Origin: a virus
Direction: 5' to 3' (one strand)
IMG/VR virus record: IMGVR_UViG_3300008266_000018
Span: 26,919-90,918 of that record
Length of the DNA: 64,000 nt
Under the pieces are notes generated by a model that made no database searches, was not told where the DNA came from, and was given only the letters and a program-made list of their open reading frames with translations. Numbering within the stretch: position 1 is the first letter of the stretch; each line of letters opens with the position of its first letter. This document shows, piece after piece, positions 62,465 to 64,000 of this stretch. The translations under genes were made by a program, and so were the position numbers.

Positions 62465-62553
62465 GCCTCCATGACCGGAAATGGCTATCGGCCTTGTTTT
62501 GTAAACAAGTATGGATTAATTATCCTTTGTCAGTTCAAATCTGACTGGAGGCT
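62465..62553 (+). tRNA. tRNA-Thr(UGU) with long variable arm
   Basis: GCCTCCA/TGGAGGC; CTTGT-TTTGTAA-ACAAG; V-arm GGAT-TAATT-ATCC; GTCAG-TTCAAAT-CTGAC. Confidence 0.8.
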
Positions 62554-62597
62554 CACTTTTTTATTTTAAATATTCCGAATATCTTTTATGATATTCA

Positions 62598-63155
62598 ATG
62601 GAATATTCTGATTTATCGGCGCAAATTAACGATTTATTTTCTCAAGGAAAAAGCATAACTGAAATTGCAAAAAATTTAAAATGCAATAGATCAACGGTTC
62701 GTTATCATACAGATCCAGTTTATAAAGAAAAATGCTTAGAGGAAAAAAGAAGTTATAAAAAAAGAATTAGAGCCGCTAAAAAGAAAAAAATAATAGACAG
62801 ATTTGGCGCGAAATGTCAAATTTGCTTTTATAATAAATGTCAAAATTCTTTAAATTTTCATCATATAGATCCAAGCACAAAATGTTTTGATGTTTCAGAT
62901 GCAACTTGTAGAAAAAATATTCCTGATGAACTTCTCGAAAAAGAATTAAAAAAATGTATTTTAATTTGTGCAAATTGTCACAATGAAATTCATGCGGGAA
63001 TGACGGAAATTCCTGAAAACGTGAAGAACCACTTGACAAACGAAGAAAGTGTTGTAGGATGTACACGTTCGCTAGAGGTGGTGATTTCAGCAGATGGTAA
63101 AAGCGCAGAAAAAGCTGAAAACCCCTTGACAATTCAACAGATTGTAGTAAGTTGA
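62598..63155 (+). CDS. HTH + HNH endonuclease (free-standing, within the tRNA region)
   Basis: SITEIAKNL HTH; CQIC..FHHIDP..KCILICANCHNEIH. Confidence 0.85.
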   Translation: MEYSDLSAQINDLFSQGKSITEIAKNLKCNRSTVRYHTDPVYKEKCLEEKRSYKKRIRAAKKKKIIDRFGAKCQICFYNKCQNSLNFHHIDPSTKCFDVSDATCRKNIPDELLEKELKKCILICANCHNEIHAGMTEIPENVKNHLTNEESVVGCTRSLEVVISADGKSAEKAENPLTIQQIVVS

Positions 63156-63299
63156 TGTCGTTCTTTAAATTTTTGCGGGTTGGAGAAGAGGTCATCTCGT
63201 CACGCTCATAACGTGAAGATCATCGGTTCGAATCCGATACCCGCTAAGTTTCCCCTTGACAATCGAAGAAAGTGTGATAGATTGTCAATGTTCTTTAAA
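63033..63299 (+). promoter_or_regulatory. Three tandem TTGACA-16 promoters with two boxA-like GTTCTTTAAA elements
   Basis: -35 boxes at 63033, 63126, 63256; GTTCTTTAAA at 63160 and 63290. Confidence 0.7.
63174..63246 (+). tRNA. tRNA-Met(CAU), initiator-like
   Basis: T1:T72 mismatch, GCGGGT/ACCCGC, TCACG-CTCATAA-CGTGA, GGTTCGAATCC. Confidence 0.85.
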
Positions 63300-63306
63300 A
63301 TTTAAT

Positions 63307-63339
63307 GCATCCGTAGCTCAACGGTAGAGCAGCAGACTT
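63307..63339 (+). tRNA. 5' exon of an intron-containing tRNA, inferred Lys(UUU)
   Basis: GCATCCG-TA-GCTC-AACGGTA-GAGC-A-GCAGA-CTT, then intron. Confidence 0.8.
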
Positions 63340-64000
63340 AGGTAATAAGAGCGTTTATACAGAAATGTATAAAATGAATCGAGCCGTATGCGGGAAACCC
63401 CTTAGAGCTTAAACTACTTGAAAAAGTAAAAATGTTTAAGATTGGGCAATCCGCAGGAAACTAAAAGATTAGCAATCTGATGGTTTATGTGTATAATATA
63501 GTATATGATAACACATAGCAAACAGAAAGGCAATCTTGGATTCTCTGCTACTTTAAAAGAGTTACATAAACTTGGATATAATGTTTTTTCTGAAATTGGT
63601 GACTACTCTAAAATAGATATGATAGTCGAATACAATAGTAAGTTAATAAAAATTCAAGTTAAATACGCTAAAGAAAAAAATGGAATTGCTACGCTTCCTT
63701 TAAGGAAATCTGGACCTAATGGATATAGATATCTTTATAAAGTTAGTGACATTGATATTTTTAGCGTGTATCTTCCTGATCAAGACAAGGTGCTTTTTAT
63801 TCCAGCTAAATTAGCTTGCGAAAATAAAAGTTCTTTTATTATCAGGTATAAAGAAAGCAAGAATCTTCAAAAGTCAAAAGTTCATTATATAAATGAATTT
63901 TTAGACCTAGATAGAATCCTCAGAGACTTTACGCTTGACATCTGTAATGATGATGATAAAGTCCAGACCACAACGGAAACGGTCAGCGAAAGCTGAAGTG
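63340..64000 (+). mobile_element. Group I intron (resembling IC3 tRNA-Leu introns); 3' end beyond the window
   Basis: P2, P3 (TCGAGC/GCTTGA), P4 (TGCGGG/TCCGCA), R (TCAGAGACTTTA), P7 (GACTTTA/TAAAGTC), P9 (TCAGC-GAAA-GCTGA). Confidence 0.88.
63505..63996 (+). CDS. Intron-encoded PD-(D/E)XK homing endonuclease (I-Ssp6803I-like)
   Basis: KG..G, IDMIVE...IKIQVK, Y....IDIF.VY. Confidence 0.85.
   Translation: MITHSKQKGNLGFSATLKELHKLGYNVFSEIGDYSKIDMIVEYNSKLIKIQVKYAKEKNGIATLPLRKSGPNGYRYLYKVSDIDIFSVYLPDQDKVLFIPAKLACENKSSFIIRYKESKNLQKSKVHYINEFLDLDRILRDFTLDICNDDDKVQTTTETVSES

Follow-up and report, generated by a model that had tools for sequence, protein, structure and literature searches.

At the end of the stretch analysed here, 64,000 nucleotides (nt) of phage DNA (positions 26,919 to 90,918 of IMG/VR virus record IMGVR_UViG_3300008266_000018; hereafter, the window), the 5' half of a tRNA gene breaks off in the anticodon and is followed by 661 nt of other sequence. 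Which tRNA does this gene encode, what is the insert, and can the gene still yield a product? With high confidence, we read the locus as a phage tRNA-Lys(UUU) gene that is split between U34 and U35 by a group I intron of about 666 nt, related to the anticodon-loop introns of tRNA-Leu(UAA) genes. An earlier note on this DNA had proposed an intron of this kind with an endonuclease gene inside it, and the helices, the guide sequence, the tRNA 5' half and the open reading frame (ORF) that it described all lie at the positions that it gave.

Exons, guide sequence and ribozyme core

The window ends (position 64000) inside the 3' strand of the paired region P9 of the insert, some 5 nt short of where the 3' splice site is predicted. 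The region beyond was read in relatives identified by exact-pattern scans, namely, IMG/VR contigs of 39 kb (L001/L003) and 129 kb (L002/L125), and ten further metagenome loci (L127-L136). In all these relatives, the sequence is ...GCTGAAGTG-GTAAG | TTAA(T/G)CTGTTGG..., followed by the T arm, the 3' strand of the acceptor stem, A73 and CCA; across the 12 complete intron copies from viral and metagenome contigs, the junction is ...GUGGUAAG|UUAAUCUGU..., with a 3' exon that begins UUAA. The 33-nt 5' exon of the window is identical in two relatives (L003 and L133) whose 3' exons complete the cloverleaf: past the intron, both read ...GAAGTGGTAAG|TTAATCTGTTGG..GTGGATTCGATTTCCACCGGATGCACCA, and the 3' exon is composed of TTAATCTGT TGG(T/C)T GTGGA TTCGATT TCCAC CGGATGC A CCA. 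By comparison with these two, the window copy is predicted to continue after position 64000 with GTAAG and then TTAATCTGTTGG(T/C)TGTGGATTCGATTTCCACCGGATGCACCA, and the predicted junction of the ligated exons is ...GCAGACUU-UUAAUCUG. Most of what the earlier note forecast for this region is present in the relatives with the identical 5' exon, where a terminal G is followed by TTAATCTGT and the gene ends with CGGATGC-A-CCA, but the forecast ...CTGC is not, pair 27-43 being G-U instead of G-C.

When the exons of the relatives are joined, they form a 75-nt tRNA, CCA included, with the 7-nt anticodon loop CUUUUAA, that is, UUU at positions 34 to 36, the anticodon of tRNA-Lys(UUU); the window itself holds the 5' half of this molecule. 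Recognition by the E. coli lysyl-tRNA synthetase (LysRS) depends on U35 of the anticodon and the discriminator A73 as lysine identity elements, and both are present in the spliced tRNA of the relatives. A CCA is encoded after A73 in the 10 close copies but not in two copies from huge phages, which likewise have A73. No second tRNA-Lys gene was called in the window or in the tRNA clusters of six relatives; the tRNA-Leu(UAA) genes in these six clusters are uninterrupted.

The identity of the host gene can also be read from the intron. The insertion follows nucleotide 34, the internal guide pairs with C32-U33-U34, and the part of the guide that would form P10 is complementary to the 3' exon, as expected of an anticodon-loop intron. 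The guide AAGAG is invariant in all Lys introns and always goes with a 3' exon beginning UU, and the combination of the AA guide with UU at the start of the 3' exon identifies the host gene as tRNA-Lys(UUU). The counterpart was found in a 61-kb contig (3300010429_001520; L151), where a tRNA-Leu(UAA) gene located directly downstream of the Lys introns is interrupted by a group I intron that lacks an ORF (58.4 bits on the Rfam model RF00028) and has the arrangement CUU|...UUGAG, a 3' exon starting AAAA, and the same intron end ...GUGGUAAG as in the Lys introns. The earlier note had deduced Lys(UUU) from AAGAG, as opposed to the UUGAG of tRNA-Leu(UAA) introns, and this deduction is borne out by the 12 complete copies and by the pairing of UUGAG with AAAA in the phage tRNA-Leu(UAA) gene.

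The two-base difference between the guides matches the two-base difference between the exons, which suggests, on the strength of this match, that the introns of the Lys lineage are relatives of the tRNA-Leu(UAA) intron that have changed target; because C32-U33-U34 is common to both tRNAs, replacement of two bases in the P10 guide would be enough for such retargeting. The comparison with the tRNA-Leu(UAA) intron of cyanobacteria and plastids (Anabaena/Nostoc type) was made through the phage copy in L151. The two introns share the insertion site (34/35), the 5' exon CUU with the GAG guide and the U-G wobble, P4-J4/5-P5 and J8/7-P7 segments of the same type, the P9 stem ACCAC/GUGGU with its GAAA-capped hairpins, and the end GUGGUAAG. 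They differ in the P10 guide (AA, not UU), in the 3' exon (UU, not AA), in the presence of an endonuclease ORF in the window copy, and in the phage location of the latter as opposed to the cyanobacterial or plastid location of the type. The label IC3, which we take to be the subgroup of tRNA-Leu(UAA)-type introns, would be extended to the window intron by this resemblance alone.

Five relatives (L003, L125, L129, L133 and L134) have complete introns of 666 nt, to which the window intron is 94-96% identical; in two others (L127 and L132), the intron is 669 nt long. Paired regions P1 to P9 follow each other in the canonical order, including the pseudoknot formed by P3 and P7, with a wobble between U34 and G63349 at the 5' splice site within the window; the terminal G of ...GGTAAG is found in 12/12 complete copies and, for the window, would lie about 5 nt past its end. 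The P4-P5 domain fits the Rfam consensus UGCGGgAAA...AAuCCGCAG, and the block at 63923-63964, which is invariant in 10/10 close copies, aligns to the Rfam consensus gaUgAAGAUAUAGUC. The decisive evidence on the ribozyme family comes from one metagenome locus (L135), a tRNA-Lys(UUU) gene of 318 nt that is interrupted by an intron with the same core but no ORF: this 243-nt intron scores 82.4 bits (E 1.3e-21) on RF00028 (Intron_gpI; gathering score 50 bits). Copies with the ORF are matched only in part (23.7 and 16.1 bits for the complete L003 copy), and the partial alignments cover P4-J4/5-P5...J5/4-P4' (UGCGGGAAAC...CAAUCCGCAGG) and P8'-J8/7-P7' (GAUGAUGAUAAAGUCC).

The ORF-less copy also places the insert. 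At P6, it reads GGA-AA-CUAUCU...AGAUAG-GA-UCC, that is, a P6 of GGA/UCC, a 2x2 internal loop, and a P6a of CUAUCU/AGAUAG; by this comparison, the ORF-bearing insert of the window lies inside P6a (63461-63 paired with 63912-14). A local P6, as it appears in the partial Rfam alignment of the ORF-bearing copy, was therefore dropped in favor of the long-range pairs GGA/UCC and CUA/UAG that the ORF-less copy displays directly. Similarly, an initial P9 pairing, GACC/GGUC, was replaced by ACCAC/GUGGU enclosing two hairpins because the latter pairing covaries.

Two alignments were used to assess covariation, one of ten close copies (A1) and one of 11 sequences into which the ORF-less copy and two tRNA-Lys introns of huge phages were brought (A2). 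In A1, 99.8% of the pair cells are standard and both partners are altered in 14 pairs; in A2, 99.5% of the cells are paired and 31 pairs are compensatory, of which three fall in P3, one in P5, five in P5a, one each in P9 and P9a, and four in P9b (those of the P9 domain being changes relative to the huge-phage introns), and sixteen in the tRNA stems. When the partners were slid by 1-3 columns as a control, only 27-42% of the cells were paired over A1 and A2 (32-42% in A2), so that the proposed pairing far exceeds what chance would produce. Together with P2, where the compensatory changes are found among the close copies, these pairs and the score of the ORF-less relative support the assignment of the insert to the group I introns, as the earlier note had claimed and as the comparison to the Rfam model that it proposed now indicates.

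All four tRNA stems are paired in 100% of the cells in A2. The strands of the acceptor and anticodon stems are divided between the two exons and nevertheless covary across the intron; for example, pair 31-39, the sides of which lie in different exons, alternates between A-U and C-G among the copies. Such covariation implies selection on the spliced product. Thus, as judged from these alignments and from the coding sequence analysis below, selection acts on the spliced tRNA, on the ribozyme helices and on the ORF.

Under the pathway that we propose, the gene would be transcribed from its own sigma-70-like promoter, and the intron would fold as P1-P9, with the guide GAG pairing with exon nucleotides C32-U33-U34 and the U-G wobble falling at the 5' splice site. 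An external guanosine would attack this site, the AA of the guide would align the UU at the start of the 3' exon through P10, and the terminal G of ...GGUAAG would mark the 3' splice site, so that ligation of the exons would release the 75-nt tRNA with the loop CUUUUAA.

The intron-encoded endonuclease

The 163-amino acid (aa) product of the ORF matches the Pfam family PF11645 (PDDEXK_5) over residues 4-132 with 70 bits (curated cut-off 26.1; E 2.8e-19), and its sole significant sequence match in the PDB is 2OST, the structure of I-Ssp6803I (phmmer E 6.8e-5). In this alignment, IDMIVEYNSKLIKIQVK of the ORF faces YDLVFDVEGILLKVQVK of 2OST, with the segment D38...Q51-V-K53 (D-x12-Q-x-K); the three residues are invariant in 8 homologues. 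D38, Q51 and K53 are taken to be the catalytic residues, as reportedly described for I-Ssp6803I by Zhao and coworkers (2007). The AlphaFold model (predicted local distance difference test, pLDDT, 74.6; predicted template modelling score, pTM, 0.72) retrieved chains of 2OST as the top four Foldseek matches (E 3.4e-9 to 1e-5, template modelling (TM) score 0.62-0.75), followed by archaeal Hjc resolvases. The family match, the sequence match and the predicted fold all support the identification of the ORF as an I-Ssp6803I-family endonuclease of the PD-(D/E)XK type, in agreement with the family and the location in the P6 loop that the earlier note had assigned to it.

The ORF is intact in 10/10 loci compared, and the ratios of nonsynonymous to synonymous substitutions (dN/dS) are in the range of 0.05 to 0.23 at synonymous distances (dS) of up to 0.83, indicating that this is a maintained gene rather than a relic. 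The Pfam domain stops at residue 132, almost exactly where the ribozyme core resumes with P6a', and codons 133-163 are read from the core (P6', P7, P3', P8, P7' and P9), with the UGA stop in the last hairpin, P9b. This overlap of 85 nt is invariant in the ten close copies, whereas synonymous changes have accumulated elsewhere in the ORF, the signature expected of a double constraint.

A promoter-like site precedes the ATG of the endonuclease, which has no Shine-Dalgarno sequence and is enclosed in a conserved hairpin. Together, these features suggest that the endonuclease may be made from a separate, possibly leaderless transcript and that its start codon may be masked in the tRNA precursor. 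In the intron endonuclease genes of phage T4, the expression of which is delayed, the start codon likewise lies in a hairpin beside an internal promoter-like site, and the start region of the window ORF resembles this arrangement. The T4 td and nrdB introns are, like the window intron, phage-borne mobile group I introns with the endonuclease encoded in a peripheral loop, but their host genes encode proteins, not tRNAs. The closest known system on the protein side is the tRNA-fMet intron of Synechocystis PCC 6803, also an anticodon-loop group I intron that encodes a small PF11645 endonuclease (I-Ssp6803I, 2OST) with a matching fold and D...QxK segment; it differs in the protein sequence (identity about 20%), in the host gene (fMet, not Lys) and in the organism (a cyanobacterium, not a phage), and the overlap of the last 31 codons with the P6'-P9 core is a feature of the window copy.

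In a collection of 50,697 phage records, no megablast match was found, so that no isolate phage in that set carries a close copy, and a tblastn search with the endonuclease retrieved homologues that are only about 30% identical. One of these, at 30% identity, is a free-standing I-Ssp6803I-like ORF of Acinetobacter phage Herod (MW316732.1, 28192-28632; L137, 1504-1944), which lies outside any intron, has its own AGGAGG, is located between intact tRNA-Arg and tRNA-Met genes, and is annotated as hypothetical. A 21-mer of the core searched against 185,579 species genomes produced two chance matches only, in a coding gene of Solobacterium, and two extra IMG/VR matches of the 17-mer CTTAGGTAATAAGAGCG were likewise discarded as chance occurrences in coding sequence.

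Features of the interrupted tRNA gene and its insert (window positions; A1 and A2 are the two alignments described in the text)
Feature	Position	Strand	Description and basis
Promoter-like site TTGACA-16-TAGATT	63256-63283	+	Consensus scan, 10/12 positions, TG ahead of the second hexamer; putative function
Conserved leader TGTTCTTTAAAAT	63289-63301	+	Precedes the tRNA; same leader before tRNA genes of relatives; putative function
tRNA-Lys(UUU) 5' exon	63307-63339	+	GCATCCG/TA/GCTC-AACGGTA-GAGC/A/GCAGA/CUU: acceptor 5' strand, D arm, anticodon-stem 5' strand, C32 U33 U34
Group I intron	63340-64000	+	First 661 of predicted 666 nt; core aligned to Rfam RF00028
Internal guide AAGAG	63347-63351	+	GAG 63349-63351 pairs with C32-U33-U34 (P1, U34-G wobble); AA 63347-63348 free for P10 with 3' exon UU
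P2	63354-63373	+	8-bp hairpin, GAAA loop; compensatory at two pairs, a G-U change at one (A1)
P3 5' strand	63379-63384	+	Pairs with 63933-63938; 3/6 pairs altered on both sides (A2)
P4-P5-P5a-P5b domain	63389-63455	+	P4 63389-94/63450-55, J4/5 AAAC, P5 63399-401/63444-46, J5/4 CAA
P5a / P5b	63408-14 with 63434-40 / 63415-28 (GAAA loop)	+	Compensatory pairs: P5 one, P5a five (A2)
P6 (GGA) and P6a (CUA) 5' strands	63456-63463	+	Pair with 63917-19 and 63912-14; close the ORF-bearing loop; pairs invariant
Promoter-like site TTAGCA-17-TATAAT	63469-63497	+	Consensus scan; ends 7 nt upstream of the endonuclease ATG; putative function
Hairpin with endonuclease start codon	63488-63519	+	Conserved; stem kept in L127 with different letters; putative function
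Homing endonuclease ORF, I-Ssp6803I-type PD-(D/E)XK, 163 aa	63505-63996	+	Pfam, 2OST match, predicted fold
P6a and P6 3' strands	63912-63919	+	Comparison with ORF-less L135; invariant
P7/P3'/P8 block	63923-63964	+	P7 5' strand 63923, 63925-31; P3 3' strand 63933-38; P8 63939-52; J8/7 63953-56; P7 3' strand 63957-64
P9 domain	63967-64000	+	ACCAC 63967-71 with GUGGU 63998-64002 (cut by the window end); encloses GAAA-capped hairpins 63974-81 and 63983-96 (UCAGC-GAAA-GCUGA)

Distribution, precedents and alternative explanations

Between loci, the introns are 87-99.7% identical, whereas the identity is 75-100% in the exons and 14-98% in the flanks, and the intron is present in at least two unrelated phage groups, with one ORF-less form. 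The more distant homologues come from huge phages. A 388-kb IMG/VR contig (3300025715_000009; L146/L157) carries two intron-bearing tRNA-Lys(UUU) genes (L146, 3515-4156 and 4199-4934, both on the minus strand), and the 61-kb contig that also encodes the interrupted tRNA-Leu(UAA) contains the same two Lys introns (L151, 2423-3167, minus strand). In one of the huge-phage copies, the endonuclease ORF is frameshifted and 49 aa long; the other contains a long variable arm (GACC-GUAA-GGUC). The first intron-bearing tRNA-Lys gene of the 388-kb contig is followed directly downstream by a gene for an RNA ligase (PF09414, 6e-15); no homologue of this ligase was detected within the window.

The endonuclease presumably cuts intron-less tRNA-Lys(UUU) DNA at the site corresponding to the anticodon stem-loop, and repair of the break would copy the intron in; such homing is likely, as judged from the enzyme family and the distribution. 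Targets do exist: in viral contigs of other phage lineages, a looser 25-mer search recovered more than 120 tRNA-Lys genes that lack the intron and share the approximately 30 bp at the insertion site.

According to a 2014 review, all phage introns then known resided in protein-coding genes, despite the many phage tRNA genes (PMC3984707). Introns in phage tRNAs were subsequently described as previously unreported by Devoto et al. (2019), who called those of the Lak megaphages 'enigmatic' and tested them against Rfam in their methods without naming a class (PMC6784885); the window intron, which shares with these the location in a phage tRNA gene, differs in being a recognizable group I ribozyme with an endonuclease. 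I-Ssp6803I and the proteins closely homologous to it are for the most part found in cyanobacteria, according to a review of homing endonucleases (PMC3384342). A 'group I intron' published for the cyanobacterial tRNA-Lys(CTT) (PMC5733544) is listed as 37-49 nt and was not counted as a precedent because this is too short for a ribozyme. Neither for tRNA-Lys(UUU) nor for any phage tRNA gene did we find a publication that describes a group I intron; subscription journals lay outside the search, so that this absence is not proof.

Several observations weigh against the reading of the locus as an interrupted, self-splicing and mobile tRNA-Lys(UUU) gene. Splicing, homing, the activity of the promoter and the 3' exon of the window copy enter it as predictions from sequence, and the last 5 or so bases of the intron and the entire 3' exon of that copy, lying past the window end, are supplied by relatives. 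On RF00028, the window copy yields only partial matches of 20.8 and 16.6 bits, because the ORF-bearing insert of about 450 nt in P6a splits the core. P4, P6, P7 and P8 never vary, so that covariation neither supports nor contradicts them, and P1 comprises only 3 exon pairs. The survey for intron-minus alleles proposed in the earlier note came out empty, in that no intron-less allele with the same exons was found in IMG/VR; hence, the case for homing rests on the enzyme family and one ORF-less variant rather than on an intron-plus/minus polymorphism. Finally, the dS values of 0.5-0.8 between some copies are also compatible with long vertical descent, as opposed to recent spread.

Two alternatives concern the nature of the insert. 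If the insert were a decayed remnant, the tRNA-Lys gene would be a dead pseudogene, killed by a selfish element, and nothing would be spliced. The 49-aa frameshifted ORF in one huge-phage copy indicates that decay does happen among these introns, but this scenario is highly improbable given the 16 compensatory pairs in the tRNA stems, some of which span the intron, the ribozyme core that is either invariant or compensated, the purifying selection on the ORF, and the fact that no other tRNA-Lys is called in the window or in the clusters of the six relatives. We give still less credence to the proposal that the insert is removed by proteins, or never, and that the group I helices are incidental: the window copy alone indeed falls below the Rfam cut-off, but the ORF-less homologue scores far above it, sixteen intron pairs show compensatory changes, and the expected U-G pair (5' splice site), terminal G and complementarity of guide and P10 are all in place.

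A different kind of alternative concerns not what the intron is but why it persists. Besides its selfish mobility, the intron could be kept for a benefit to the phage, either by excluding co-infecting relatives through cleavage of their intron-less tRNA-Lys genes or by timing or shielding the supply of tRNA-Lys(UUU), a substrate of PrrC-type anticodon nucleases. The earlier note, too, had speculated on an interaction of such a splicing-dependent gene with host defense. Intron endonucleases are known to mediate marker exclusion between T-even phages, and T4 repairs PrrC-cut tRNA-Lys with Pnkp and Rnl1. The RNA ligase gene next to the intron-bearing tRNA-Lys of the huge phage is the sole hint of a link to host defense; furthermore, the ORF has been under purifying selection over dS of up to 0.83, beyond what would be expected of a purely parasitic endonuclease. 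Such selection, however, is also expected under ongoing homing, nothing in the window ties the intron to defense, no RNA ligase homologue is found in its 64 kb, and a mature spliced tRNA is as cleavable as any other, so that we regard this explanation as unlikely.

The interpretation that we favor remains a group I intron in a tRNA-Lys(UUU) gene. A broader scenario, which we put forward tentatively and consider possible rather than probable, is that phage tRNA clusters harbor a lineage of mobile group I introns not described before, derived from the tRNA-Leu(UAA) intron by a P10 switch from UU to AA; in at least two unrelated phage groups, it would now reside in the single tRNA-Lys(UUU) gene detected in the regions sampled, with an endonuclease long retained for competition between phages or for control over the supply of a tRNA targeted by anticodon nucleases. 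The proposed mechanism is a textbook one and, as such, of limited surprise; what is new is the host gene, tRNA-Lys(UUU), and the setting, a phage tRNA cluster. Here, a canonical combination of ribozyme and endonuclease appears in a phage tRNA gene, and for tRNA-Lys(UUU) we found no real precedent. The pair of guides AAGAG and UUGAG would be a clean natural example of a change of target by a group I intron, the ORF-less copy is a compact ribozyme of 243 nt, and the family would provide a new endonuclease of the I-Ssp6803I type, with a different target of 20-30 bp.

The tRNA cluster around the interrupted gene

The window (31-36% G+C) encodes a DNA polymerase, a DnaB-type helicase, a ribonucleotide reductase (RNR) and rIIA/rIIB, directly downstream of which lies the small tRNA cluster. 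In scans of the window, the split tRNA gene at 63307 was called neither by ARAGORN nor by Rfam at the gathering threshold; elsewhere in the window, ARAGORN calls four tRNAs and Rfam three. Accordingly, the tRNA sets of such phages are likely to be under-counted.

The tRNA genes each have a TTGACA-type promoter-like site of their own and a leader motif, (T/C)GTTCTTTAAA(A/T)T, right upstream of the mature 5' end (window positions 63159-63171 and 63289-63301), and the same holds for four relatives (L003, L125, L129 and L136); the exact motif is uncommon in the rest of the window. Behind the same motif, directly after tRNA-Lys, the relatives encode a conserved tRNA-like RNA of 68-71 nt (about 2065-2133 in L003, with equivalents at the matching place in L125, L129, L133, L134 and L136), a position that corresponds to just past the window end. 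ARAGORN does not call this RNA, which has an acceptor-like stem of 7-8 bp with compensatory changes (GAGCGG.G versus AAGCAGTG), lacks a D arm, and contains a central arm of about 8-13 bp with a conserved GUGU at the loop center (AAUGUGUGUU or AACGUGUGUU) and a T-like arm of 5 bp.

Upstream in the cluster, the tRNA-Thr(UGU) gene (62465-62554, plus strand; Rfam tRNA 41.1 bits) is 90 nt long and has an extra (variable) arm of 17 nt, AUGGAUUAAUUAUCCUU, whereas tRNA-Thr is 75 nt long in two relatives (L125 and L136). To our knowledge, a long variable arm is not expected in a bacterial tRNA-Thr, and the arm may be a small insertion. Between tRNA-Thr and tRNA-Met, a free-standing ORF of 185 aa (62598-63155, plus strand) shows weak helix-turn-helix matches at the N-terminus and ends with the HNH-like tail CANCHNEIH; it is probably a second homing endonuclease of this cluster.

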